A stretch of DNA of 26,893 nt from Phycisphaerales bacterium (GTDB lineage: Bacteria; Planctomycetota; Phycisphaerae; Phycisphaerales; UBA1924), in assembly GCA_029260415.1 (NCBI GenBank), contig JAJDDH010000166.1, positions 1-26,893 on the forward strand, written 5' to 3'. The translations under genes were made by a program, and so were the position numbers. Shown here in pieces: positions 7,693 to 26,464 of this stretch (its first letter is position 1; the number at the start of each line of letters is the position of its first letter). The notes below the pieces were generated by a model, which did not search any database, was not told where the DNA came from, and was given only the letters and a program-made list of their open reading frames with translations.

Positions 7693-7726
7693 AAGAAAGG
7701 GGCCCACGCTCAACAGCGCGGGCCCC
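7693..7726 (-). terminator. Intrinsic terminator of haloperoxidase-like gene 1
   Basis: Minus strand reads GGGGCCCGCGCT-GTTG-AGCGTGGGCCCC-TTTCTT: a 12-bp stem with one G-U pair and a U-rich tail, 27 nt after the stop. The hairpin also faces the converging HD-GYP gene. Confidence 0.85.
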
Positions 7727-7752: not shown

Positions 7753-7923
7753 TTACGGGCAGCCGGCGCCGAACGACGTCAGGAACGCGAGCACATCGGA
7801 GAAATCGACCGTCCGGAAGGGCGGGGCGATGTCACAGATCAGATCACCCTCGCTGAACGCGGTCAGGAAGCCGATCACGTCGGTGAAGTTGAGCACGCGG
7901 TTGCCGTCGTAGTCCGCCGGGCA
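7753..7923 (-). repeat. GC-type dockerin-like C-terminal domain, copy 1 (two EF-hand-like repeats)
   Basis: CPADYDGNRVLNFTDVIGFLTAFSEGDLICDIAPPFRTVDFSDVLAFLTSFGAGCP-stop; homologous to the tails at 10150-10320 and 12560-12733. Confidence 0.85.
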
Positions 7924-9897
7924 GCTGACCTGACCCGAGAAGTACCGGCGAGACGTGCCCCACGCGTCCTGCGCGACCTCCACACCCATGTGACGACCCG
8001 GCAGGTCATCCGCGGGCGGGTGGATGCCACCCCAGATGCGCGAGAGTGACGTCTGGTCCGACGCGTCGCGGTAGGTCGCCCACTGCAGCGTGATGTTCTG
8101 GCTCGGGCCCTCCTCGAAGATGAGGAACTCGTTCTGCGGGCAGAAGAACTCGCCCACGCCGCCCGGGAAGAACTCGCTGCCCGTCATCCAGGTCATGAGC
8201 TCCGAGGCGCCCCGCGAGAACGTCGAGTGCCCCGAGACGTAGCCCGCGAACGGGGGCGTCACGAACGTCGGGCGCTGGTAGGGCCACCACTCTTCGATCA
8301 GGATCCAGTCCACGCCCGCTTCGTCGATCTCCGGATCGACGATGTAGTCCGGGCCGCGCCAGGCCTTGACGACGATCTTGCCCTCGTTGCCCGCCAGGTG
8401 CTCGTGGCGCTCGCCGGGCGCGGTGGTCGTCGAAGTGCACACCTCGATCAGCCCCGGGTACAGCGCGATGCCGTCGGGGTCAAAGCTCGCCTGGCCCATG
8501 TCGGAACTCTGTCCCTGGTCGCCCATGTAGCGGATGGCGCTGATCGGACGCAGGTAGTCGTACCAGCCCTTGCAGCCCCAGGCAGTCACCGCGACGTCGT
8601 GCATCATGCCGCCGAGCATCAGGTACGCCTTCACGTCCCACTCGAGATCGGGGAGGATCGGGCCCTCGCCGCCGAATCGCTTCTCGAACAGCGGGTGGTC
8701 GTTGACGTAGTTGAGGATCGAGAACCAGTGCCCGGGAGGGGTCTCGGAGGCGGGGCCGTCGGCCCAGAACTCCGCGAGGATGCGGGCGTAGTCGCCGCGC
8801 GGCACGATCTGCGCCGGGTAGGGCGCCATGGTCACCGGGTTCATCGCCCAGCCCATGCCAGAGTCGCCGCCGTTGACGAAGTCGTAGTACGTCGCCCAGT
8901 CGTTGACGCCCGGCAGCGGGCTGTTGCCGAAGCTGGCGGGTGAGATGTCGATCATGACCCCGTCGCTCGGGTCCAGATGGCTCGACCACGAGACGACCAT
9001 CTCGTTGCCCCAGCGGTAGTAGTCGTCGCCCACCCCGTTGAAGAACGGGGGGTCGCCCGGGTCGTGGTAGACGGGGTACGGGTCGCCGCCCCGTGAGTAG
9101 TTGATTTTGTCCTCGTCATGCAGCGCGAAGCCCGCGACCTGTCCCCACTCGGGGCCGAGGAACTCGAGCGAGCCCAGCGGGATCGGGATGTCGTTCTGGT
9201 CCAGGAAGAACTCGATCGCCAGAGGCTGCCAGCGGTTCACGTCCGAGATGTCCGGGTTGCCCGGGAAGTCGGGGAACAGCGGCAGGTTCACGGCCTCGTA
9301 GAACAGGTTGTCGTAGTCGTTCGCTTCGTTGGCGCCGTCCGTCAGCCCGAACAGGATGACCGACGCGCCGATCCGGTTGCCCAGCGCCGCGGGCGTGTCG
9401 CCGATCGTCGTCGTCACCATCGGGTCGTACCCGAGCGATGCCATCTGCGCCTCGACCATCGGGAGGATCGCCGCCGCGCCCACCGAGGGCGTGAACCGCT
9501 GCACCAGGACCCGGTACATCGCGTAGCTGATCGCCTCGTTGCGGGCCGCCTCGACATCGACCGCGGTCTGGCGCTCGCTGTGGAAGACCTGGTCCGCCAC
9601 GTCGTCGTACGCCGCCCACGCGTCCCACATCGCCGCCGACGTGTGGTACAGGTTCCGCGCGTGAACCGTCGGGCGGGCCTTGTCGTTGCGGATCGCCTCA
9701 AGAAGCACGTCGTTCCACTGGCGCGCGACCGAGTGCACGCCCCGCGGCGTCGCGGGCGTCACGCTGCCGTCGGCGTGGTGGGTGCGGTAGATGAACCCGG
9801 CCTCCTGGGCGCTGGCGGGCGTGGCCGCCACCCCCGAGAGCCCCAACGCGATCAGGCCGGCCGCGGCGATCGCCCCTGTGTGCTGTGTACCCGTCAT
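7753..9897 (-). CDS. Secreted vanadium-dependent haloperoxidase/PAP2-superfamily protein, paralogue 1, with C-terminal GC-type dockerin-like domain
   Basis: Signal peptide (AIAAAGLIALGLSGVAATPASA-QE). All three vanadate/phosphate-binding motifs are present: K-x6-RP (KGWYDYLRP), PPFAGYVSGH and SRIWGGIH. Also AEFWADGP, and the protein ends in GAGCP. Confidence 0.85.
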   Translation of the reverse strand: MTGTQHTGAIAAAGLIALGLSGVAATPASAQEAGFIYRTHHADGSVTPATPRGVHSVARQWNDVLLEAIRNDKARPTVHARNLYHTSAAMWDAWAAYDDVADQVFHSERQTAVDVEAARNEAISYAMYRVLVQRFTPSVGAAAILPMVEAQMASLGYDPMVTTTIGDTPAALGNRIGASVILFGLTDGANEANDYDNLFYEAVNLPLFPDFPGNPDISDVNRWQPLAIEFFLDQNDIPIPLGSLEFLGPEWGQVAGFALHDEDKINYSRGGDPYPVYHDPGDPPFFNGVGDDYYRWGNEMVVSWSSHLDPSDGVMIDISPASFGNSPLPGVNDWATYYDFVNGGDSGMGWAMNPVTMAPYPAQIVPRGDYARILAEFWADGPASETPPGHWFSILNYVNDHPLFEKRFGGEGPILPDLEWDVKAYLMLGGMMHDVAVTAWGCKGWYDYLRPISAIRYMGDQGQSSDMGQASFDPDGIALYPGLIEVCTSTTTAPGERHEHLAGNEGKIVVKAWRGPDYIVDPEIDEAGVDWILIEEWWPYQRPTFVTPPFAGYVSGHSTFSRGASELMTWMTGSEFFPGGVGEFFCPQNEFLIFEEGPSQNITLQWATYRDASDQTSLSRIWGGIHPPADDLPGRHMGVEVAQDAWGTSRRYFSGQVSCPADYDGNRVLNFTDVIGFLTAFSEGDLICDIAPPFRTVDFSDVLAFLTSFGAGCP

Positions 9898-10006
9898 GGA
9901 TCAAATCCCCGTGTGTATCCCATCTCAACTCATCAGCCAGGGGGGTCCGAGAACCACCAAGGCCCTGCCGGCGCGCAGCGAACGTCGCGCAGAGTCCGGC
10001 CACCCG

Positions 10007-10034
10007 ATCCTACCGCGCGATCCCCTCGATCCAA
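10007..10034 (-). promoter_or_regulatory. Putative sigma70-type promoter for haloperoxidase-like gene 1
   Basis: Minus strand TTGGAT-16 nt-TAGGAT, about 110 nt upstream of ATG 9897 and just downstream of the upstream gene's terminator. Pattern match only. Confidence 0.35.
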
Positions 10035-10079
10035 AGCCAATCTCACGCCCACGGCCCCTCCCGGGGCACGCCCCGACCC

Positions 10080-10126
10080 AAAAAGCCGAGAACCCCCTCC
10101 CGGCGGTCCGGGAAGGGGTTCGCGGC
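10080..10126 (-). terminator. Intrinsic terminator of haloperoxidase-like gene 2
   Basis: Minus strand reads GCCG-C-GAACCCCTTCCCGG-ACCG-CCGGGAGGGGGTTC-T-CGGC-TTTTT: a long stem with one mismatch and one G-U, then a U5 tail, 23 nt after the stop. Confidence 0.88.
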
Positions 10127-10149
10127 GTGTTCCCTCTGGACGACCCGGG

Positions 10150-10320
10150 TTAGGGGCAGCCCTCGCCGAACGCCTCGAGGAAGGCGATCAGGTCGGTGAA
10201 GTTGACGACACGGAACGGCGGGGCGATGTCACAGATCAGGTCCTGCTCCCCGAACGCCGTGATGAACGCGAGCACGTCCGTGAAGTTCAGGATGCGATCG
10301 CCCGAGTAGTCCGCCGGGCA
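10150..10320 (-). repeat. GC-type dockerin-like C-terminal domain, copy 2
   Basis: CPADYSGDRILNFTDVLAFITAFGEQDLICDIAPPFRVVNFTDLIAFLEAFGEGCP-stop. Confidence 0.85.
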
Positions 10321-12348
10321 GGAGATCTGCCCGCTGAAGTACCGACGCCCCTGCGCCATCGCGTCGGGCGCCAGCTTTGTACCGATGTGACGCCCGGGCA
10401 GATCGTCGGCAGGCGGGTGGATCCCGCCCCAGATCCGCGACTGCGAGCACTCGTCGGACGCGTCGATGTACTTGGCCCACTGCAGCTCACAGTCCACGCT
10501 GGGCCCGTCCTCGAACACGAGGAACTCGTTGGCCGGCGCCTCGAACACGCCCATCCCGCCCGGGAAGTACTCCGAGCCCGTCAGCATGGACAGCAGCTCC
10601 GCGGCGCACCGCGAGTACGTCGAGTGCCCGGAGTAGTACCCCGGGAATGGGGGCGAAACGAACGACGGACGCTGGTAGGGCCACCAGTTCTCCGCCAGGA
10701 TCCAGCCCGTGCCCGCGACATCGACGTCCGGGTCCACGATGAAGTCCGGGCCGCGCCACGCCTTGATCGCGATGCTGCCCTCGCTGCCCGCCAGATGCTC
10801 GTGCTTCTGGCCCGCGGCCGTGGTCTCAGCGGTCACGACCTCGATGAAATCAGGGACCAGGTTCACGCCCAGCGGGTTGTAGCTGGGCATCTCCGGGTCC
10901 GAGCACTGCCCGCGATCAGCCATGTACCGGATGGCGCTGATCGGGCGGACGAAGTCGTACCAGCCCTTGGCGCCCCAGCAGGCGATCGCCGTGTCGTGCA
11001 TCGCGCCGCCCAGCAGCAGGTAGGACTTCACGTCCCACTCGAGCTGGTCCAGCTCGGGGCCCTCGCCCATGAACTGGCGGTTCGAGAGCGGGTGGTCGTT
11101 GACGTAGTTGAGGAGCGTGAACCAGTGCCCGGGGGGCGTCTCGGAGGCGGGGCCGTCAGCCCAGAACTCCGCGAGGATGCGCCCGTAGTCGCCGCGCGGG
11201 ACGATCTGGGGCTCGTAGGGCAGGCCCGTGACCGGGTTGACGTCGTAGCCCATGCTGACCGAGCCGCCGTTGACGCGGTCGTAGTACGTCTCCCAGCTAT
11301 CAACCGGGGGAGGGGCGCCATAGTCGCCGATCGACGCGGGGGAGATGTCCCACATCACGCCGTCGGCCGGGTCGAGAAGGGCCGACCACATGGTCACCAT
11401 CTCAAAGCCCCACTTGTAATATTCCTGCGTCTGGATGTCGCCCATCTGCGGGGGCGGTCCGGGGTCGTGGTACACCGGGTAGTCGAACCCACCGCGGGAG
11501 TAGACCGTCGCGTCCTCCTCGTGCAGCGAGAAGCCTTCGACGATGCCCCACTCCGGGCTCAGCGCGTTGAGCGAACCGAACGGCACCGGGTTGCCCGACT
11601 GATCGACAAAGAAGTCGATCGCCAGAGGCTGCCAGCGGTTGCAGTCGATGATCTCCGGGTTGCCCGGGAGGATCACGATCAGCGGCTCGTTGATCGGCTC
11701 GTAATACTCGTTCCCGTAGTTGTTCGCCTCGTTGGAGCCGTCGGCTTGCCCGTACGCGATGATCGACGCCGCGATCCGGTTGCCCAGCGCCGCGGGCGTG
11801 TCGCCCACGGTGGTATCGATGTTCTTGTCGTAGCCCAGCTCGAGCATCAGCGCGTCCAGGTCGGGCATGATCTCCGGCGCCCCGGGCGACGCCTGGAAGC
11901 GGTACCGCATCAGGCGGTACATCGCGTAGCTGATCGCCTCGGCACGGGCCGCGTCCACGTCCACCGCCGTCTGCTTCTCCTGATGCAGGACCTGGTCCTC
12001 GGGGCCGTTGCCGTAGGCCACCCACGCGTCCCACATCGCGGCGCCGCTGTGGTACAGGTTCCGCGCGTGCACCGTCGGGCGGGAGTTGTCACGCCGGATG
12101 GCGAACAGCAGCTCCTCGTTCCAGGTCCGCGCGATCGAGTGTGACTCCTCGCCGCGCCCGGGGACTTCTTCCCACGTGGCGTCGGGGCGCTGCACCTTGA
12201 ATACGTACCGCCCCGGGCGGTGAATCTTCCCGCTCGCCGCGCCGTCCATGATTACCTGAGCCTGGGCCCCGTCGCCCGCGCTCAGCACGACGGCCAACGC
12301 ACCGATCGCCCCGAGCTTCACCATGTTCCGGTTGTGTGTCATCGCCAC
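10150..12348 (-). CDS. Secreted vanadium-dependent haloperoxidase/PAP2-superfamily protein, paralogue 2, with C-terminal GC-type dockerin-like domain
   Basis: Motifs KGWYDFVRP, PPFPGYYSGH, SRIWGGIH and AEFWADGPASETPPGHW; signal peptide (LGAIGALAVVLSAGDGAQA-QV); collinear with paralogue 1. The start is either GTG 12348 or ATG 12342. Confidence 0.85.
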   Translation of the reverse strand: MAMTHNRNMVKLGAIGALAVVLSAGDGAQAQVIMDGAASGKIHRPGRYVFKVQRPDATWEEVPGRGEESHSIARTWNEELLFAIRRDNSRPTVHARNLYHSGAAMWDAWVAYGNGPEDQVLHQEKQTAVDVDAARAEAISYAMYRLMRYRFQASPGAPEIMPDLDALMLELGYDKNIDTTVGDTPAALGNRIAASIIAYGQADGSNEANNYGNEYYEPINEPLIVILPGNPEIIDCNRWQPLAIDFFVDQSGNPVPFGSLNALSPEWGIVEGFSLHEEDATVYSRGGFDYPVYHDPGPPPQMGDIQTQEYYKWGFEMVTMWSALLDPADGVMWDISPASIGDYGAPPPVDSWETYYDRVNGGSVSMGYDVNPVTGLPYEPQIVPRGDYGRILAEFWADGPASETPPGHWFTLLNYVNDHPLSNRQFMGEGPELDQLEWDVKSYLLLGGAMHDTAIACWGAKGWYDFVRPISAIRYMADRGQCSDPEMPSYNPLGVNLVPDFIEVVTAETTAAGQKHEHLAGSEGSIAIKAWRGPDFIVDPDVDVAGTGWILAENWWPYQRPSFVSPPFPGYYSGHSTYSRCAAELLSMLTGSEYFPGGMGVFEAPANEFLVFEDGPSVDCELQWAKYIDASDECSQSRIWGGIHPPADDLPGRHIGTKLAPDAMAQGRRYFSGQISCPADYSGDRILNFTDVLAFITAFGEQDLICDIAPPFRVVNFTDLIAFLEAFGEGCP

Positions 12349-12435
12349 ATCTCTTTACTTGCTGGGTGTTGACAGGGCGATCACGACGCGACGCCCCCTG
12401 CGCAGACCGCGTCCCATGCGCACGCGGCTCCATGC

Positions 12436-12472
12436 ATGCTAAACCATATATTCCGAAAGACATAGAAAATTC
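12436..12472 (-). promoter_or_regulatory. AT-rich patch, probable promoter region of haloperoxidase-like gene 2
   Basis: A markedly AT-rich stretch in GC-rich DNA. The minus strand contains TAnnnT hexamers (TAGCAT at 12441-12436, also TATGGT) about 90 nt upstream of the start. No convincing -35. Confidence 0.35.
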
Positions 12473-12559
12473 AGGAACCGGACAGGAACCAGAACCCTCC
12501 CCAAAGGGCGGCGTCCGGGAACGATGGCGGTCTCTGGGCTCAGGCGAGCCAAACCCGGA

Positions 12560-12733
12560 TCAGGGGCAGCCAGTCCCGAAGGCGCCCAGGAAGGCGACAA
12601 CGTCTGAGAAGTCGAACGTCCCCATCGGGGCCGCCAGGTCCGCCGCGGGCTCGCCCGCGGCGAAGGCGCTCAGGAAGGCCACCACGTCGGAGAAGTCCAG
12701 CGTACCGAACGGCTCGGCCAGATCCGCGATGCA
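12560..12733 (-). repeat. GC-type dockerin-like C-terminal domain, copy 3 (clear internal duplication)
   Basis: CIADLAEPFGTLDFSDVVAFLSAFAAGEPAADLAAPMGTFDFSDVVAFLGAFGTGCP-stop; DFSDVVAFL occurs twice. Confidence 0.88.
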
Positions 12734-14878
12734 GTCGGGCGCGTCCTCGCAGGTCAGCACGGTGACGTTCACGGCGTCCACGCCCGCCTCGACGACCGAC
12801 CCCGAGCCCGTGTCGCTGGCCGTGAACCGCACCCGCACCTGGCTCGACGGCGAGGCGAAGCTGTCGTTGAGGGTGAAGCTCTTTGCGAACCACCCGCCGC
12901 CCGCCTCGGGGCCCGTGGGCCCGACCGTCTCGAGGTTCTGCCAGCTCGACCCGTTGTTGTTCGAGATCTCGACGACCATGATGTCCTCGTTGGCCGACCC
13001 GCCCGCGGTGTTGGAGAACCAGCGGGCGTAGCTCAGGACCGCCTGTCCGCCCGTCGCGTCCATCGCGGGGCTGGTGAGGGTGGTCGAGCCGCCGTCCACG
13101 TCGGAGTTGCCGTCCTGGTTGTCGGTCAGGTAGCACTGGCCCGAGCCGTCGTAATCGGTCGGGGGATCGCCCCGGTCGCCCCCGCCCGCGGGCACGCCCC
13201 GGTCCCACTGTCCGTCGCTTGCGTTGCCCGAGACGCCCCAGCCCATGTTGGTCTGGAAGTTGTCGTCAAAGTTCGTCGCGCTGTCGCTGGCGATGGGCGC
13301 CGAGAGCGTCGATCCCGGGAAGTCCGCGGGGATGGTGTACGTCTGCCCGCTGGTGGACATTACGCTAACCCAGAAGTTGGCGTCGGTCCCGCAATCGACC
13401 GAGGGGGTGGTGAAGCTCCAGGTCCCGTCGCCGTTGTCGCTGCCGACGACCTCGATCGCGGGCCCGCCCGCGATCACGTTGAGCTTCACTTCCGCCGGGT
13501 CCACGCTCTGGCCCAGCTCCTGAATCTTGATCGAGAGCTGCGCGCCGCCCTCGGGGGGGAACACGCCGGGCAGTTCGCCGTCCATGCTCACCAGCAGGCG
13601 GTCGCCCAGGGCGTCAACGTCGAGGATGAACAGCCCGCGCTCGATGTCGGAGACGATGACGTTGCCCGAGGGGAAGAACGGGTAGTTGCTCCAGGCGCCG
13701 TTGAACCCAAGCCCGTTGGAGCCCGGGTGCGTGTCGAAGTACCCGACCTCGACCGGGTTTGTGGGGTCCGTCGCGTTGAAGATCCGCAGACCCGTGCGGT
13801 AGTTGGACTCGAAGATCAGCTCGTCGCGCGTGTACAGGTTGTGGTCGATCGAGCCCAGCCCGGTCGTGAACGTCCCGGCCTGAAATGGGTTGTTGATGTC
13901 TGACACGTCGAGGATCCGTGTGGTCGTCGTGGAGACCTGCCCGCTGTCCTCGTCCAGCTCATCGTTGAGGTAGAAGTACCGCTTGTCGGGTGAGAGCCAG
14001 CCCTGGTGCGAGTAGCTGGGGGTGGAGTAGAACAGCGTCGAGACGGTAAAGAAGTTATTCGGGTTGGTGACGTCCACGATCCGCAGGCCCGTGCTCGTGA
14101 AGCCGCCGTCGAGACCCGAGTTGCAGAACGCGATCTCACGCCCCGCGAACGGGCCCTCGGAGTAACTGACCACCTGCGCGTCGTGGATGTAGAAGCTGGT
14201 CCACGCCTCGGCGATCTGCGGCGCCTCCGGGTTGTTCAGGTTCAGCTCCACCAGCCCGCCGTTGCCCACGTTCCCGCCCACGATGAACAAACGCCCCGAG
14301 TCCGGGTTGGCGACGATGTTGTGCGCCGTGGAGAACCCGCCCGCGTTGGAGTTGCCAACAAAGGTTACGTTCCCGTTGTCCACGTCCGACAGGTCCATGA
14401 TCTGCACGCCCACGCCCGTCTGGTCGGAGACGCCGTAGGCGTACTCGCCGATGACCTTGACGTCGTGCCAGAGGCTCGCCGGGCCAGGGATGGTCGCGAG
14501 GACGACCGGGCTGGTCGGGTTGGTGATGTCCACGACGCCAAAGCCCGCCTCGAGCCCGAGGATCGCGTACTCACGCCCGCTGGGCGAGACGTACCCCCAG
14601 CAGTCGTTCGAATCCGCGTGGAAGCCCGCGAAGTTGTTGATCGGGATGTTGGCCAGCAGCGTCACGCCGCTCGCGTCGAACAGGCCCCGCTGATCCGCCC
14701 CGTCCACGCTCTGATCCGCCCGGTCGGCGCTCCAGATCGGCCCGAACACCGCCGGCATCTTGTCGGCCAGCTTCCGCCAGTCCTCGTCGTGCGCCAGGGC
14801 GCCCGTGCTCAGCCCGCCCAGCAGGCCCGCGGCGAGGAGGAGACGGATGGAATCGGACGTCCGAGAACCCTTGTACAT
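12560..14878 (-). CDS. Secreted choice-of-anchor B family protein (LVIVD-type beta-propeller, beta-sandwich, GC-type dockerin-like tail), 772 aa
   Basis: Motifs NDCWGYVSPSGREYA, WHDVKV, AHNIV, YIHDAQ, SHQGWL, LNDELDE, SIDHNLY, SNYRTGLRI and GAWSNYPFFPSG, typical of the choice-of-anchor B domain. Signal peptide present. Start moved to ATG 14878, which has an AAGGTG SD. Confidence 0.85.
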   Translation of the reverse strand: MYKGSRTSDSIRLLLAAGLLGGLSTGALAHDEDWRKLADKMPAVFGPIWSADRADQSVDGADQRGLFDASGVTLLANIPINNFAGFHADSNDCWGYVSPSGREYAILGLEAGFGVVDITNPTSPVVLATIPGPASLWHDVKVIGEYAYGVSDQTGVGVQIMDLSDVDNGNVTFVGNSNAGGFSTAHNIVANPDSGRLFIVGGNVGNGGLVELNLNNPEAPQIAEAWTSFYIHDAQVVSYSEGPFAGREIAFCNSGLDGGFTSTGLRIVDVTNPNNFFTVSTLFYSTPSYSHQGWLSPDKRYFYLNDELDEDSGQVSTTTTRILDVSDINNPFQAGTFTTGLGSIDHNLYTRDELIFESNYRTGLRIFNATDPTNPVEVGYFDTHPGSNGLGFNGAWSNYPFFPSGNVIVSDIERGLFILDVDALGDRLLVSMDGELPGVFPPEGGAQLSIKIQELGQSVDPAEVKLNVIAGGPAIEVVGSDNGDGTWSFTTPSVDCGTDANFWVSVMSTSGQTYTIPADFPGSTLSAPIASDSATNFDDNFQTNMGWGVSGNASDGQWDRGVPAGGGDRGDPPTDYDGSGQCYLTDNQDGNSDVDGGSTTLTSPAMDATGGQAVLSYARWFSNTAGGSANEDIMVVEISNNNGSSWQNLETVGPTGPEAGGGWFAKSFTLNDSFASPSSQVRVRFTASDTGSGSVVEAGVDAVNVTVLTCEDAPDCIADLAEPFGTLDFSDVVAFLSAFAAGEPAADLAAPMGTFDFSDVVAFLGAFGTGCP

Positions 14879-15039
14879 ACCAAACACCTTTCGTGGGGAG
14901 CGGCGCAGATCGCGAATTGGCAGCAAGACCCTGCCCGCGACTGCAGGCTACTACGCATACGCCCCTGCCGCCGAGGGGTTTCAGAGACAATCCTCGCTCC
15001 ATCGAACTCGGGGGCTCAACGGGCCGAACAATCCCCGGC

Positions 15040-15895: not shown

Positions 15896-16957
15896 TCAGC
15901 GCGCGATCCGCATGATCTGAACCCGGTCCGTCGCCCGCCCGGGCCCGACCATCCCGCCCACCACCATCCATCGCCCGTCCCCGATCGGGACCAGCCCCCG
16001 GTGGTCCATGCTCGCCGTCACGCCCACGGGCAGCGCTCCAACGCGAACCCCGCCCGATCCGGCGTCAACCACCAGCAGCTGCTCCAGCGGCGCGCACGCC
16101 TCCCCGTTGTACCCCGTCCCGCTGATGTTGTACGCCGTGTCGCTCCCGCCCAGCGCGAGGATGGCGCCGTCGTTGGCGCCCGTTGTCGAGCACGCCGCCC
16201 GGTAGGTCGCACGCCCCTCGTGCGCGTCGCGTTGTTCCCATACGATCCGGGTCGGGTCCGCCGGGTTGATCCTGCCAACCTGGACCGCCGAGGACATCTC
16301 GAACCCGTCCTTGCCCCGCGCGACCCCGTCCATGACGACGATCGTCTCGCCCGAGACCCCGCCGCTGTGCCCGAAGAGCGGTCGCCCGGGCAGGGGCGTC
16401 GCGCTCGCCCACACATCGCGCCGCGTGTCGTACAGCTGCACGTCACTGACGTTGTCGTTGCTGGGCCCGTGCCACCCGCTGATCAGCACGATGTACCGGT
16501 CGGCGTACACACCCGCGAGCGTGTCATCGACCTCGACGGGAACGCTCGCCAGCTCGGCATACGCGTCCGCGTCCGGGTCGTACCGAAGCAGCCGCTTCTC
16601 CGTCACCTCGTGCCCGTCGTCGAGCACGCTGTACCCGCCGAGGAGGTAGACCCTTCCCGCGACCGTCACGGCGCTGGCCCCGATCCGCGCCCGCCCGCCG
16701 TCCAGCGGGGCGTCGCCGATGCGTATCCAGGCGCGCGTCCCCGAGTCCAGGCGGAACGACGCGGGGGTGATCGTCTGCGGGTCGGTCGGGTCCGTGATGC
16801 CCATGAAGCAGTACACGCTCCAGGCGCCGTCGGGGTGGATGACCGACGTCACGGCGTTGTTGGTAATGGGTATGGGCAGGTCGGGCGCGTGCGCCGCGCA
16901 CCCCGCCTGGAAGGCGAGCACGAGGCTGAGCACCGCAAAAAGGGCGGGTCGGAGCAT
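15896..16957 (-). CDS. Kelch-repeat (beta-propeller) exported protein, possible lipoprotein
   Basis: Kelch-like units (RIGASAVTVAGRVYLLGGY, YIVLISGW...VQLYDTRRDVW, LFGHSGG, ILALGG, WMVVGG); signal peptide ending in QAGC (imperfect lipobox). Confidence 0.75.
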   Translation of the reverse strand: MLRPALFAVLSLVLAFQAGCAAHAPDLPIPITNNAVTSVIHPDGAWSVYCFMGITDPTDPQTITPASFRLDSGTRAWIRIGDAPLDGGRARIGASAVTVAGRVYLLGGYSVLDDGHEVTEKRLLRYDPDADAYAELASVPVEVDDTLAGVYADRYIVLISGWHGPSNDNVSDVQLYDTRRDVWASATPLPGRPLFGHSGGVSGETIVVMDGVARGKDGFEMSSAVQVGRINPADPTRIVWEQRDAHEGRATYRAACSTTGANDGAILALGGSDTAYNISGTGYNGEACAPLEQLLVVDAGSGGVRVGALPVGVTASMDHRGLVPIGDGRWMVVGGMVGPGRATDRVQIMRIAR

Positions 16958-22793: not shown

Positions 22794-23660
22794 ATGCTGG
22801 GTCTGCGAAAGAAGAAAGCCGCCGCGAGCGTGCCCTGTGAGGCGCCCGCGCCTGCGGTCCTGGACGCCCGGGGCAACGAGCTGCTCCGCCTGCCCGAGCC
22901 CGGCGCGGCGATGCTGCCCAGCTCGCTCGCGTTCTCGCTCTACAAAGCGGGCAGCACGCTCCTGAGCAAGGTGCTCGAGGACCTCGCCCCCCACGCGGGC
23001 GTGCGGGCGTACAACCTGGAGAAGGAGCTCTTCCGCCTGGGCATCGAGCACCGCGACCTGCCCAAGAGCGTCGCGGGGGTATTCCGGGAGCGCGGGTACT
23101 GCTACACCGTCTTCCGGTCGATGCCCTTTGCCTACGAGATCCCGATCTTCGAGAACGCGCCCAAGCTCCTGCTCGTGCGAGACCCGAGGGACATCCTCGT
23201 CTCGCACTACTTCTCGATGGGCAAGACCCACCCCACGCCGGGCGACGCGGTAAGCCAGAAGAAGCGCGAGCGCTTCGATCGCGAGCGCCAGATCGTGCAG
23301 ACGACCACGGTCGACGAGCACGCGCTGCGCAAGGCGGAGCTGTTCCGCCGGTACTTCGCGGAGTACGACCGCCGCCTGCTCGCGCAGCCCAACCTCAGGA
23401 TCGATCGGTACGAGGACATCGTCTTCAGCAAGCCCGACTGGGTCGACGCGATCTGCGGGCACCTGGGCTGGGAGATCGAAGTCGAAACTTGCGCCAGCGT
23501 CGCGCAGAAGCACGACATCGTCCCCGAGGACGAGCAGGGCAACCGTCACATCAGGCGCGTGCGCCCGGGCGACCACGTCGAGAAGCTCCGCCCCGAGACG
23601 ATCGCGTCGCTCAACGAGACGTTCGCGCCCGTCCTTGAACGATACGGGTACGACCGATGA
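22794..23660 (+). CDS. Sulfotransferase domain protein, paralogue 1
   Basis: 5'-PSB-like YKAGST, 3'-PB-like VRDPRDILVSHY, RYEDI, and C-terminal HIRRVRPGD; GGAGAG SD. Confidence 0.8.
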   Translation: MLGLRKKKAAASVPCEAPAPAVLDARGNELLRLPEPGAAMLPSSLAFSLYKAGSTLLSKVLEDLAPHAGVRAYNLEKELFRLGIEHRDLPKSVAGVFRERGYCYTVFRSMPFAYEIPIFENAPKLLLVRDPRDILVSHYFSMGKTHPTPGDAVSQKKRERFDRERQIVQTTTVDEHALRKAELFRRYFAEYDRRLLAQPNLRIDRYEDIVFSKPDWVDAICGHLGWEIEVETCASVAQKHDIVPEDEQGNRHIRRVRPGDHVEKLRPETIASLNETFAPVLERYGYDR

Positions 23661-24490
23661 GCGGGGCGGCGCACGAGATCGGCGGGCAGGTGGAGTTGAG
23701 CGTGGACGGGTCCACGATCGCGACGCTCCCGCGCCCGAAGCACACACGCCCCAGCGTGCTCTCCTTCTCGCTGCCCAAGGCCGGCAGCGTGCTGCTCGAG
23801 AGCATCATGGCAGACCTGGCCCACCGGGCGGGGCTGGGCTACTTCAGCCTCGAGACCGTCCTCTTCGAGCGCGGCATCCCCGTTGATGACGCGCCCGCGG
23901 ACGCGTCCAGGCTCTTCTTCCCGCACGGCTACTGCTACGGGGGCTTCCGCCGCCTGCCCAGCGCCTACGACATCCCCATCCTGGGCGACGCCAGGAAAGT
24001 TCTGCTGATCCGTGATCCGCGCGACATGCTCGTCTCGCTGTACTACTCGATCACGACGTCGCACCGCCCGCCGGGCACGGGGGCGGGTCAGGAGGCGCTC
24101 GATCGCTTCGAGCGCGATCGTGCGTCGGTCAGCCGGACCCCCATCGACGTGTTCATGAAGCTGCGGTCCGAGCGGTTCAGCAAGCTCTACCTCTCCTACG
24201 ACCGGATCCTCGACGACCCGTTGCTCCGCGTGTACCGCTACGAAGACGTGCTCTACAAGAAACGCGACTGGGTGAAGAACATCTGCGACTGGTTCTCGTG
24301 GAGCGTGGGCAAGGGGGCGCGCCACGAGATCGCCGACGCCTACGACCAGATCCCCGGCAGCGAGAACCCGGGCCAGCACGTCCGGCGCGCCCACCCGGGC
24401 GATTACAAAGAAAAGCTCGACGACAAGACCATCGCCTTCCTCAACGAGCTGCTCGCCCCGATCCTGGACCGCCACGGGTACGAGCGGTAG
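23657..24490 (+). CDS. Sulfotransferase domain protein, paralogue 2
   Basis: Motifs LPKAGS, IRDPRDMLVSLYYS, RYEDV and HVRRAHPGD; ATGA 4-nt overlap with paralogue 1. Confidence 0.8.
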   Translation: MSGAAHEIGGQVELSVDGSTIATLPRPKHTRPSVLSFSLPKAGSVLLESIMADLAHRAGLGYFSLETVLFERGIPVDDAPADASRLFFPHGYCYGGFRRLPSAYDIPILGDARKVLLIRDPRDMLVSLYYSITTSHRPPGTGAGQEALDRFERDRASVSRTPIDVFMKLRSERFSKLYLSYDRILDDPLLRVYRYEDVLYKKRDWVKNICDWFSWSVGKGARHEIADAYDQIPGSENPGQHVRRAHPGDYKEKLDDKTIAFLNELLAPILDRHGYER

Positions 24491-25360: not shown

Positions 25361-26464
25361 TCACCAGTCCGAGGGCGTGGGCGTGACGGGGCCCTCGCCC
25401 CGGATGCCGTCGATCTGCAGCAGCTCGAAGCGGGAGTCCACCCCCTCCTGCGCGTCGTTGTCGCTGACGAGGATCAGCAGGCGCCCGTCCTCGCCCACGT
25501 CGTTGCTCAGGCACATGCCCTCGTAGTTGGCCGCGGGCACGCCCAGGTCGCTCAGCGTCGCCAGTCGGTGCTTGATCGCGGGCTTGGTGGGCACGACCGC
25601 CAGCGGGTCAACGCCCGCGACGTTGTCGCTCGTGCGCACGTCCACGTGGTACAGGCGCCCGTCGAACCCGCCCTGCCCGTCCTCGTCACGCTCGAGCGCG
25701 ATCAGGCGCCCCCGCTCCACGGCGATCAGCTCCACCAGCCCCAGCCGCTTCGGGTCGTCGTTCAGTGTCGTCGGGCCGAGCTCGTAGGCGAACTCGCCCG
25801 TGACCATCCGCGTCACCAGGTCGATCTCCAGGATCCGCACGCTCCCCGACCCGGCGTCCTGCATCAGCGGCTCCTCATTCGCGGCGTACGCGAACCGCCC
25901 GTCGGGCGTGACGCCCAGCGCCTCGAACCCCCGGTCGTGCGCGATGCCGTGGCTCTCCGAGGGCGCGAACTTCGAGGGCGTGAGCGCCAACTCCTCGCTC
26001 CCGCTGACCTGGTCATAAAGCAGCAGCGACGTCCCGATGCCCGTCTTGGCGTGCCCCTCGCTCGCCAGCAGGAACTGGCGCGAGAGGTTGGCCTCGCCCA
26101 GCAGACGCATCGACTCAGGGTCGAGCGTGTTGGGGGGGAACTCCTCGCCCGCGCTGTTGAGGAAGAAGTGCTGATCGACCCGACCGAGCGGGCGGAAACG
26201 GGGCTCGCCCGTCTCCGCGTCGGCGCCGAACTCGATGCGCATCAGCCCGTACCGCGGCGCCGCGGTCTCGCCCCGATCGCCAGAGACGACCACGTACCAC
26301 CCGCGCCCGATGGGCTCGATCGCGGAGAGCTCGACAACCGGGATCGACGCGTGCTCGCCCCGCCCCCAGTCGTGGGGCATCGACGCCGAGTCGAGACGCT
26401 TGACGTGCCACTCGGGCCCGCCCAGACACGCGCCCGCCAGAACAACGCTCGCAATCAGACTCAT
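25361..26464 (-). CDS. Exported esterase-like activity of phytase family protein (beta-propeller)
   Basis: Signal-like N-terminus; ELSAI, DPESMR, HDRGFEALGVTPDG, NYEGMCL and LLILVSDND; GGGAGAG SD. Confidence 0.8.
   Translation of the reverse strand: MSLIASVVLAGACLGGPEWHVKRLDSASMPHDWGRGEHASIPVVELSAIEPIGRGWYVVVSGDRGETAAPRYGLMRIEFGADAETGEPRFRPLGRVDQHFFLNSAGEEFPPNTLDPESMRLLGEANLSRQFLLASEGHAKTGIGTSLLLYDQVSGSEELALTPSKFAPSESHGIAHDRGFEALGVTPDGRFAYAANEEPLMQDAGSGSVRILEIDLVTRMVTGEFAYELGPTTLNDDPKRLGLVELIAVERGRLIALERDEDGQGGFDGRLYHVDVRTSDNVAGVDPLAVVPTKPAIKHRLATLSDLGVPAANYEGMCLSNDVGEDGRLLILVSDNDAQEGVDSRFELLQIDGIRGEGPVTPTPSDW

Follow-up and report, generated by a model that had tools for sequence, protein, structure and literature searches.

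Three adjoining genes of a marine Phycisphaerales planctomycete encode proteins that end in one and the same module, and this module, a ~57-residue, two-helix, two-loop tail of dockerin ancestry, is carried by about 6% of the genes of the genome. The interpretation that, in our opinion, best explains the observations as a whole, and that is on balance somewhat probable, is that the tail docks exported cargo non-covalently onto a protein socket on the cell surface, with a tandem array of cohesin-like PEP-CTERM proteins (family F1) as the best candidate for that socket. The tail itself had already been catalogued; what is new here is its scale within a genome, the degeneracy of its loops, its interchange with other anchors, and the F1 array as candidate socket.

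Three tail-bearing genes in the window

The window, that is, the whole stretch of 26,893 nucleotides that was analysed, belongs to a partial genome (2.39 Mb, 61% complete). Three adjoining minus-strand genes at 7753-9897, 10150-12348, and 12560-14878 share one orientation and encode two vanadium-haloperoxidase/PAP2-like paralogues and one choice-of-anchor B protein. The first-pass annotation had described the three as co-oriented genes for proteins with a signal peptide and a duplicated tail that ends in GCP before the stop codon. The translations bear this out: each protein has a signal-peptide-like N-terminus (judged by eye as Sec-like, ending in A-x-A) and a 56-57-residue duplicated loop-helix tail. 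The features are as follows.

7699..7726, minus strand: terminator-like hairpin directly 3' of gene 1 (12-bp stem, 10 GC pairs, T-rich tail)
7753..9897, minus strand: gene 1, vanadium-haloperoxidase/PAP2-like secreted protein of 714 aa that ends in a GC-type dockerin tail (translation and Pfam)
7756..7923, minus strand: gene 1 tail (residues 659-714), a dockerin-like module of two repeats, bracketed by Cys and ending GCP (NF041540; genome search match 7759-7923)
9808..9897, minus strand: gene 1 signal-peptide-like N-terminus, residues 1-30, ASA followed by Q (by eye)
10090..10121, minus strand: terminator-like hairpin directly 3' of gene 2 (14-bp stem, 10 GC pairs, T run)
10150..12348, minus strand: gene 2, a 732-aa paralogue of gene 1 when read from its GTG, with M3 at 12342 as the probable start (translation and Pfam)
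10153..10320, minus strand: gene 2 tail, residues 677-732, hybrid GC-type like that of gene 1 (NF041540; match 10156-10320)
12560..14878, minus strand: gene 3, coding for a secreted LVIVD-type choice-of-anchor B protein of 772 aa; the start is probably the ATG at 14878, inside ORF 12560-14926 (translation and TIGR04312)
12563..12733, minus strand: gene 3 tail, GC-type typical of the source genus, ending GCP (NF041540; match 12566-12733)
14792..14878, minus strand: gene 3 signal-peptide-like N-terminus, ALA followed by H (by eye)

The terminator-like hairpin 3' of gene 2 makes it probable that genes 2 and 1 are transcribed separately. The gene neighbourhood of the window is not shared by a more distant complete genome that has the haloperoxidase-like gene. 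Sulfotransferase genes also lie within the window.

The proteins of genes 1 and 2 are 61% identical. Pfam DUF6851 matches both (51.6 and 39.9 bits, respectively, against a cut-off of 27), while VCPO_2nd matches gene 2 with 35.2 bits and gene 1, below its cut-off, with 22.9 bits. Direct reading finds the PAP2/haloperoxidase motifs K-x6-RP, (P)SGH, and SR-x5-H-x3-D all kept in both proteins, and close homologues of gene 1 carry the NCBI name vanadium-dependent haloperoxidase. By sequence, then, the two proteins are members of the vanadium haloperoxidase/PAP2 superfamily and predicted enzymes, either haloperoxidases or phosphatases. Gene 3 matches TIGR04312 (choice-of-anchor B) over residues 81-435 with 334 bits against a cut-off of 100; this family is defined by its alternative anchors, and the protein is taken to be of the propeller type. 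The start methionine of gene 3 is common to the orthologues P0004, P0005, and P0007.

The tail is a catalogued family present in more than 100 genes

NCBIfam model NF041540 (dockerin_GC; curated cut-off 29 bits) matches genes 1, 2, and 3 with 39.3, 40.1, and 44.3 bits at residues 659-713, 677-731, and 732-787, the last numbered in ORF 12560-14926. The three proteins are thus ordinary members of an already catalogued family, and NCBI names their database relatives [quoted passage not shown]. The best scorers of the model (82 bits) are a long-loop variant from another genus (G008), whereas tails of the source genus score 30-56 bits.

Counting tail-bearing proteins genome-wide had been proposed in the first-pass annotation. 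A purpose-built HMM finds the tail in 133 ORFs of the source genome, about 6% of its genes, and NF041540 likewise gives 133 matches. With the purpose-built HMM, 131 of the 133 tails lie no more than six residues from the stop codon and about 105 end in [AGST]GCP; the domain ends exactly at the stop codon in 116 of 134 tail domains. Such numbers mean that the sharing of the tail is not due to chance. A rough gene call assigns the tail to 117 of its 1877 genes, and 60 of the 117 sit in runs of 2-5 neighbouring genes. The cargo is unrelated in sequence family and extracellular in type: peptidases of families M10, M12, and M14, amylase, GH16, trypsin, subtilase, nuclease/phosphatase, and FG-GAP proteins. 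A signal-peptide heuristic applied to stop-to-stop ORFs proved too permissive, being positive for 88% of the tail genes and for 45% of the rest. GC tails occur in all 24 genomes of the source family that were searched.

A cysteine just ahead of the first repeat is present in all three tails of the window. Among database tails it lies within 12 residues of the module in 123 of 123 cases, and 122 of the 123 end in GCP; in the source genome, 105 of 123 tails with the terminal cysteine have a cysteine pair 50-62 residues apart. A disulfide bond probably joins the cysteine ahead of the module to the penultimate residue of the tail.

Relation to classical dockerins

Each half of the gene 3 tail consists of a 13-residue degenerate loop, AD-L-A-x-P-x-G-x-L-D-F-S-D, and a V-x-A-F-L-x-A-F helix, with a cysteine four residues ahead of the first loop. 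This is the usual build in the source genome, where loops have 13 residues with Ala and Pro at calcium-ligand positions 3 and 5. The tails of genes 1 and 2 combine a 12-residue near-canonical loop in repeat 1 with a 13-residue degenerate loop in repeat 2; loop 1 of these two genes is the only one with 12-residue spacing and oxygen-bearing side chains at positions 1, 3, 5, 9, and 12. The gene 1 tail has an additional cysteine ahead of repeat 2, and a third cysteine together with one near-canonical loop makes the tails of the two haloperoxidase-like proteins hybrids. The earlier description of the tail as EF-hand-like thus overstates the likeness of the loops: none of 131 source-genome tails fits the canonical 12-residue calcium-loop pattern.

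Several observations nevertheless point to dockerin descent. The sister genera G019 and G010 have C-terminal tails with canonical D-x-N-x-D-G loops, in which Pfam Dockerin_1 (PF00404) matches at NF041540 coordinates. The AlphaFold2 model of the gene 3 tail (pLDDT 87) has two helices, and when it was compared with about 48,000 PDB chains the best six matches were all dockerins, with rmsd of about 3 A over 51-60 residues and Z scores of only 4.5-3.0, as expected for a module of only ~60 residues. Other searches returned nothing: Dockerin_1 has no match in the three isolated tails even at E<=10, Foldseek finds no PDB match for the tail model at E<=0.001, and nothing above noise came from comparing a 48-tail profile with PDB sequences. 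The loss of two calcium-ligand positions, the gained residue, the lack of a Pfam match, and the low Z scores mean that dockerin-type behaviour of the tail is not assured.

With type I dockerins (PF00404; 2vn5_B, 2ccl_B, 6kg9), the GC tail shares the duplicated ~22-residue loop-helix, the two-helix fold as modelled, the C-terminal position on many secreted enzymes, and the occurrence of near-identical copies within one genome. It differs in its host, a Gram-negative-type planctomycete, in its mostly non-cellulolytic cargo, in the conserved cysteines at both ends, in the degenerate calcium loops of the source genus, and in that its cohesin partner is a candidate only.

Does such a module need a protein receptor at all? 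It might bind acidic or sulfated polysaccharide, lipopolysaccharide, or peptidoglycan, self-associate, or merely stabilise its cargo. Cohesin-less orphan dockerins are widespread according to Peer et al. 2009, as cited in PMC6461901; a Pfam Cohesin search finds no canonical cohesin in the tail-rich genomes G010 and G019; and the sulfotransferase genes of the window are a weak hint in the same direction. We nevertheless consider a tail that functions in one of these ways quite unlikely. Tails on unrelated cargo within one genome have a mean column identity of 76%, yet the tail type varies from genus to genus, and this is the pattern expected of co-evolution with a protein partner. Moreover, cohesin-like modules do exist in these genomes, several of which encode them fused to GC tails.

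The tail as a proposed anchor or sorting tag

Evidence for an anchoring role comes from homologues of the haloperoxidase-like core. Among 119 close homologues (63-82% identity), about 102 have Cys-bracketed dockerin-like tails, while 3 to 8 have IPTL-CTERM-like anchors, in which (V/I)P-x-x-SEWG or SGWG is followed by a membrane helix and a basic cluster. The two kinds of C-terminus lie equally far from the GGIHP motif. As the IPTL-CTERM-like anchors occupy the position of the tail in orthologues, the tail behaves as one option among several surface anchors.

In position and in its behaviour as a portable address tag, the tail resembles both PEP-CTERM/IPTL-CTERM signals and the C-terminal domain of type IX secretion. 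It lacks the membrane helix and basic cluster of the former, and it is a folded helical domain, unlike the beta-sandwich of the latter; lacking the helix and cluster and being such a domain, it cannot be an exosortase-type signal. The suggestion made earlier, that the tail is a planctomycete C-terminal sorting or assembly tag, fits its strict C-terminal position, its presence in ~6% of genes, its unrelated cargo, and the anchor swap; the tag had, however, already been named by NCBI. The common surface scaffold to which the tail was further suggested to target the enzymes is hypothetical.

A sorting tag could also act in export proper. On the model of the type IX C-terminal domain of Bacteroidota, a periplasmic machine might recognise the disulfide-closed C-terminal domain, move the cargo across the outer membrane, and then perhaps remove the tail. 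Such a signal would suit a tail that sits strictly at the C-terminus, that closes over 100 signal-peptide proteins of unrelated kinds with a conserved G-C-P, and that is interchangeable with C-terminal sorting signals of the sort that sortase-like enzymes process, and diderm planctomycetes do require some route across the outer membrane. The module is, however, of dockerin descent, and dockerins are binding modules; export signalling therefore appears improbable to us. By comparison, it is probable that the tail serves as a handle by which a protein receptor docks or anchors the cargo. Retention of tail-bearing cargo at the surface is suggested by analogy and anchor swapping.

A PEP-CTERM cohesin-like family as candidate receptor

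The first-pass annotation saw no cohesin in the window and knew of no partner for the tail. Both statements hold: literature searches on "GC-type dockerin" found no paper, partner, or assay for the family, and searches on PEP-CTERM with cohesin and dockerin found no paper either. Outside the window, the genome encodes cohesin-like modules of three kinds, namely a PEP-CTERM array, a cohesin-like protein with a GC tail, and a cohesin/canonical-dockerin locus. Pfam Cohesin (PF00963) gave two sub-threshold matches in five tail-rich genomes and did not pick up the array, the F1 family.

In the source genome, F1 is encoded by four tandem copies on contig C111 and two on contig C257, and arrays of 2-7 copies occur in all six genomes of the source genus. 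An F1 protein has a signal peptide, then a cohesin-like beta-sandwich of ~140 residues, and lastly a PEP-CTERM tail; in 23 of 23 copies this tail shows the (V/I/T)P-x-P motif together with the hydrophobic helix and the Arg cluster. The genome encodes an exosortase of its own (Exosortase_EpsH on contig C148, E 5e-45).

The medium-confidence AlphaFold2 model of F1 (pLDDT 75) predicts a nine-stranded cohesin-type beta-sandwich. In a Foldseek search of the PDB with this model, the top 37 matches are nearly all cohesins (best E 2.7e-4, probability 1.00), and in a PDB search independent of Foldseek cohesins make up 13 of the top 15 (Z 9.6-7.8). Neighbours in the AlphaFold DB bear cohesin or PEP-CTERM names. 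In sequence, the relation is faint: Pfam Cohesin matches just two of 32 members at E ~0.02, and the top two PDB sequence matches of a broader F1 profile are ScaB cohesins of R. flavefaciens (E 0.005 and 0.007).

ScaE of Ruminococcus flavefaciens joins one type III cohesin to an LPXTG sortase anchor. Its structure (2zf9) is among the structural matches of F1, which resembles ScaE, and OlpA and OlpC of C. thermocellum, in its proposed layout, one cohesin-fold module that a C-terminal sorting signal would hold covalently on the envelope. It differs from ScaE in that its anchor is of the PEP-CTERM/exosortase kind in a diderm instead of an LPXTG sortase anchor, in that its sequence is hardly recognisable as that of a cohesin, and in its arrays of 2-7 divergent paralogues.

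Phylogenetic profiling for cohesin-like proteins or co-occurring outer-membrane proteins had also been proposed at the outset. A broad F1 profile was searched in genomes that include 24 of the source family and 4 of its sister family. It has matches in 16 of the 24, and among the six with no more than five tails it misses four (G007, G014, G016, and G021), while G024 has matches and G009 weak ones. Correspondence with the tail distribution is imperfect, however. The tail-rich genomes G012, G013, G020, and G023 have no F1-like match, none of the four genomes of the sister family has one although that family has GC tails, and two matches occur in G037, a genome devoid of GC tails. It should be noted that the compared genomes are kin, so that these counts are not independent, and that having or lacking the tail discriminates poorly in profiling, since most tail-poor relatives (G007, G009, G021, and G029) show, at a first look, more than 100 candidates for Dockerin_1, a hint at dockerin variants of other kinds.

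Further comparisons gave little. The flanks of the F1 array in G006 contain neither tail genes nor obvious partner genes; the context of the PEP-CTERM genes on contig C352 is uninformative (RNase III, an NADH dehydrogenase subunit, and a DNA methylase); and Pfam and NCBIfam find only the sorting motif in six small PEP-CTERM proteins. A complex prediction for F1 (residues 22-152) with the tail scored 0.00, with both chains poorly folded and the run made without controls, and counts neither for nor against binding. The numerical disproportion between seven cohesin-like modules and ~133 tails implies either very high expression of the socket or another receptor. In favour of F1, its cohesin-like module is joined to a GC tail in G000:C413 (283 aa, source genome), G008:C97 (281 aa), G019:C8 (669 aa), and P0300. 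We put F1 forward tentatively, as a possible receptor.

A receptor other than F1 must accordingly be weighed, whether an unrecognised outer-membrane or surface-layer protein, a protein that combines cohesin and GC tail, or proteins of the contig C282 locus. The combined type is that of G000:C413. At the C282 locus, canonical dockerins and a HYR domain accompany a cohesin-like module and an M14 peptidase; an hhalign comparison of F1 with its sequence-recognisable cohesin-like modules detects no kinship (probability 0.1%). The failure to find F1-like proteins in eight of 24 family genomes and in any of the sister family, together with at least 27 PEP-CTERM proteins of other families in the source genome that have unassigned passenger domains, leaves room for such a receptor, and the tail-rich genomes G012 and G023, which lack F1-like matches, do have C282-type modules. 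A cohesin/dockerin "planctosome", to which the C282 locus is similar, has moreover already been proposed for freshwater Phycisphaerae (Andrei et al. 2019, ISME J; PMC6461901). As a general receptor, the C282 module was rejected: it is found in only four of 31 genera of the family, against GC tails in every genome searched, and its proteins carry canonical, not GC-type, dockerins. There being positive evidence for no other candidate, we judge a non-F1 receptor rather unlikely, if less so than export signalling or a tail with no specific receptor.

Proposed mechanism and significance

In the docking interpretation, the three proteins would be exported through Sec, and the GC tail would serve as a non-covalent docking handle that plugs into a protein socket, keeping the cargo on the cell surface instead of letting it be lost to sea water. 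About 6% of gene products, mostly hydrolases and other extracellular enzymes, would be displayed in this way. The candidate socket, the F1 tandem array, would owe its place on the envelope to the exosortase that the same genome encodes and would work in the manner of the sortase-anchored, single-cohesin ScaE.

The planctosome was likewise proposed as a non-cellulolytic surface assembly, of M12 and M14 peptidases (PMC6461901). That proposal was built on a small number of large proteins whose modules Pfam recognises; the GC-type tail, with its more than 100 genes per genome, and PEP-CTERM cohesin-like anchors are not described there. In a broader and more speculative reading, GC tails and exosortase-anchored single-cohesin proteins might together form, in a Gram-negative-type marine bacterium, a cellulosome-like but non-cellulolytic system of surface display for peptidases, glycosidases, nucleases, and peroxidases, in which plug and socket co-diverge from genus to genus and each lineage has a private docking code.

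The PEP-CTERM cohesin-like array makes the question of the receptor testable. If the pairing of GC tail and F1 is true, the long-missing partner of the "orphan" planctomycete dockerins has been identified, and a compact, disulfide-stabilised docking pair might find use in protein display. Among the organisms that degrade algal and particulate organic matter, marine Phycisphaerales are common. If one in 16 or so of the gene products of such an organism does depend on one plug-and-socket system, that system would decide whether its extracellular enzymes are private or public goods.

Three tail-bearing genes in the window

Three co-oriented genes encode secreted-type proteins with a shared C-terminal tail, as the first-pass annotation had proposed; the translations and the NF041540, TIGR04312 and Pfam matches described here confirm that reading.

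7753-9897, minus strand: gene 1, open reading frame of 714 aa
10150-12348, minus strand: gene 2, open reading frame of 732 aa
12560-14926, minus strand: gene 3, open reading frame with its likely start at ATG 14878, 16 codons in

The start of gene 3 is placed at ATG 14878 because its orthologues begin at that Met. Read by eye, all three N-termini look like signal peptides (a basic and hydrophobic stretch ending in A-x-A), and all three translations end in GCP-stop. The NCBIfam model NF041540 (dockerin_GC), whose cut-off is 29 bits, matches each protein at 39-44 bits over its final 55-56 residues. The gene 3 product is a choice-of-anchor B protein (TIGR04312, 334 bits in the NCBIfam scan). The products of genes 1 and 2 are 61% identical to each other and contain Pfam DUF6851 and the VCPO second helical-bundle domain; direct reading of both sequences shows the PAP2/vanadium-haloperoxidase superfamily motifs K-x6-RP, SGH and SR-x5-H-x3-D intact, and proteins closely homologous to them bear the NCBI name 'vanadium-dependent haloperoxidase'. 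Terminator-like hairpins lie 3' of genes 1 and 2 and the intergenic gaps measure 211-252 nt; on this evidence the three genes stand next to each other in one orientation but do not form an obvious operon. Their products add ordinary members to an already catalogued family of secreted proteins with this tail, and the finding itself is thus not novel.

A Kelch-repeat protein gene without the GC tail (15896-16957, minus strand) adjoins the three genes. Downstream of guaB, at 22794-24490 (plus strand) and 25361-26464 (minus strand), lie two adjacent sulfotransferase-family genes and a phytase-like esterase gene, which may bear on a sulfated surface polysaccharide; no link to the tail was seen.

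Abundance, distribution and cargo of the tail

The genome-wide count suggested by the first-pass annotation gave 133 NF041540 matches in the source assembly (2.39 Mb, 434 contigs, 61% complete), in which the window is contig C166. An HMM built from the three tails and iterated once likewise found 133 open reading frames, 131 of which have the module no more than 6 residues from the stop and about 105 of which end in [AGST]GCP. By a crude GC3-based gene call, 117 of 1877 genes (6.2%) carry the tail, and 60 of these 117 have other tail genes as direct neighbours, forming runs of 2-5. In each of the six other genomes of the genus NF041540 matches at least 104 times, counts being capped at 111. 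Every one of the 24 genomes searched in the family has matches, from 1 to more than 111, and genomes of the sister family have 3-28; none was found in 12 genomes that represent four further families of the order. Three genomes of the source family (G007, G009, G021) and one of another family (G029) have few or no NF041540 matches yet give more than 100 first-look Dockerin_1 candidates; the order probably has further C-terminal dockerin variants outside the reach of NF041540.

Searching a protein database with only the tail as query yielded 303 proteins, of which those with a source name are called 'MAG: GC-type dockerin domain-anchored protein [Phycisphaerales bacterium ...]'; a literature search found no publication using the name 'GC-type dockerin'. 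About half of the proteins lack a Pfam domain. The cargo domains of tail proteins are mutually unrelated (M10, M12 and M14 peptidases, alpha-amylase, GH16, trypsin, subtilase, endonuclease/phosphatase, FG-GAP) and of kinds usual in extracellular enzymes. The tail is also found on an animal-haem-peroxidase-family protein (G000:C352:14999-15586, L021) truncated at a contig end; together with the two haloperoxidase-like enzymes this protein suggests a set of surface-displayed oxidative enzymes. One 904-aa GC-tail protein (P0010) is filed in a eukaryotic proteome set (eukprot) and probably comes from Phycisphaerales cells that contaminated, or were associated with, a cultured protist or alga.

Relationship of the tail to dockerins

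Pfam does not match the window tails, and a 48-tail profile found no solved relative among PDB sequences. The tail can still be linked to dockerins in two ways. First, equivalent C-terminal tails of two sister genera (G019, G010) have canonical 12-residue loops (C-P-A-D-F-N-G-D-G-x-x-N-x-x-D), start with Cys, end in G-C or P-C-P, and match NF041540 and Pfam Dockerin_1 at the same coordinates. Second, an AF2 model of the gene 3 tail (pLDDT 87, two helices), compared with about 48,000 PDB chains, had dockerins as its six best matches, at low Z (4.5-3.0; rmsd about 3 Å over 51-60 residues); Foldseek returned nothing significant for this model. In a third genus (G008), a tail variant with loops 7 residues longer gives the top NF041540 scores.

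Judged by sequence, the loops of the source genus are degenerate: their consensus, A-D-L-A-E-P-F-G-V-L-D-F-S-D, is 13 residues long and places Ala and Pro where ligands 3 and 5 would be, and none of 131 tails of the source genome fits the canonical calcium-loop pattern. The tails of genes 1 and 2 are hybrids, in which loop 1 (D-Y-D-G-N-R-V-L-N-F-T-D) retains spacing and oxygen ligands and loop 2 is of the degenerate kind; they also have a third Cys, ahead of repeat 2. A Cys directly before the module and a penultimate Cys are nearly universal among tails. The N- and C-terminal ends of a dockerin are adjacent in the fold, so this pair most naturally suggests a disulfide that would join the two ends of the tail.

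The tail as a probable, interchangeable surface anchor

The C-termini of the 119 best homologues of the gene 1 core (63-82% identical; query without its tail) were classified. Eighty end in G-C(x), and a further 22 have a dockerin-like end whose Cys stands 1-4 residues from the terminus; 6 combine calcium loops with some other ending. In 3-8 the tail gives way to a (V/I)P-x-x-SEWG or SGWG motif, then a hydrophobic helix and a cluster of basic residues, which we take to be the IPTL-CTERM-type sorting anchor pattern (TIGR04174). Such anchors stand in place of the dockerin in close orthologues from other lineages (P0191, P0201, P0236, P0175, P0212), and the lineages with orthologues anchored in this way include a Myxococcota-labelled MAG (P0185). 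The replacing anchor starts at the same distance from the conserved GGIHP motif; thus the haloperoxidase-like family takes alternative C-terminal surface anchors, the GC tail being one of them, as does the choice-of-anchor B family of gene 3. It behaves as a 'choice-of-anchor' family though not so named. This interchange supports a role of the tail in cell-surface retention, and would also be compatible with the alternative that the tail acts as an export signal.

Candidate receptors

The first-pass annotation had seen no cohesin in the window and proposed a wider search. With Pfam Cohesin, five tail-rich genomes gave only two matches, both sub-threshold; cohesin-like modules did emerge at one of these, a contig of the source genome, and in a small family of PEP-CTERM proteins, here called F1.

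G000:C282:1-8051 (L003): two large proteins with cohesin-like modules, HYR domain, canonical (non-GC) dockerins, GC-tail protein, M14 carboxypeptidase
G000:C111:3-2281 (L040): F1 array, four tandem copies
G000:C257:1-1320 (L028-L030): F1 array, two copies

One large C282 protein joins a cohesin-like module to canonical dockerin repeats; the second has the HYR domain, another cohesin-like module and two Dockerin_1 domains. The small GC-tail protein beside them and the M14 peptidase complete a locus resembling the 'planctosome' proposed for freshwater Phycisphaerae (PMC6461901). The best PDB sequence matches of the module profile are cohesins (1g1k and 2vn5, E about 0.01). Present in only 4 of the family's 31 genera, the module cannot be a receptor for the tails in general, and we rejected it in that role.

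The source genome encodes an exosortase and, by pattern search, 27 PEP-CTERM proteins. In each F1 copy a signal peptide precedes a beta-rich domain of about 140 residues, and a PEP-CTERM motif closes the protein; arrays of 2-7 copies occur in all six genomes of the genus. Sequence databases assign the mature domain to no family; its predicted fold is cohesin-type. In a Foldseek search of the PDB with the AF2 model (pLDDT 75, 23-sequence alignment), cohesins made up nearly all of the first 37 matches (best E 2.7e-4, probability 1.00). A Foldseek-independent search placed cohesins in 13 of the top 15 (Z 9.6-7.8, against a generic beta-sandwich background near 7; rmsd 3.1-3.6 Å over 109-124 residues). 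Neighbours in AlphaFold DB carry the name 'cohesin domain-containing' or 'PEP-CTERM' protein. At the sequence level, the top two PDB matches of a 32-member profile are R. flavefaciens ScaB cohesins (E 0.005 and 0.007); Pfam Cohesin matches only 2 of the 32 members (E about 0.02), and hhalign found no link to the C282-type modules. The family is small: a search of 1.84 billion proteins gave 77 representatives at E<=1e-3, and the small proteins among them mostly end in PEP-CTERM.

Links between the tail and F1

A 283-aa protein of the source genome (G000:C413:3785-4633, plus strand; L065) joins an F1-like cohesin-like domain, behind a signal peptide, to the GC tail; the domain was detected at E 7e-7 to 3e-9 with a profile not containing this sequence. 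G008:C97 (281 aa), G019:C8 (669 aa) and P0300 likewise unite such a domain with the tail. Adaptor scaffoldins also have cohesin and dockerin in a single protein, and the fusions resemble them in architecture. Similar proteins were also seen in G005:C14 and G024.

Phylogenetic profiling, likewise proposed earlier, showed an imperfect co-occurrence of F1 and the tail. A broad F1 profile matches 16 of 24 family genomes, including G010 and G019, where the matched open reading frames end in PEP-CTERM, and misses 4 of 6 genomes with five or fewer tails. It finds no match in four tail-rich genomes (G012, G013, G020, G023) or in any of four sister-family genomes, and matches G037, which has no GC tails; G012 and G023 have C282-type modules. 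The genomes are kin and F1 diverges fast, so the co-occurrence is a lead rather than a correlation. Both chains folded poorly in a predicted F1-tail complex, which counts neither way.

In our opinion, the tail is probably a docking handle for surface display, clasped by a disulfide; less probably, it could dock on another protein receptor, act as an export signal or bind a non-protein ligand. The new and most specific hypothesis of this analysis, a tentative one, is that the exosortase-anchored, cohesin-like F1 array provides the socket; on it, the tail would plug into that array, and as a clasped handle would hold its varied cargo on display at the cell surface.
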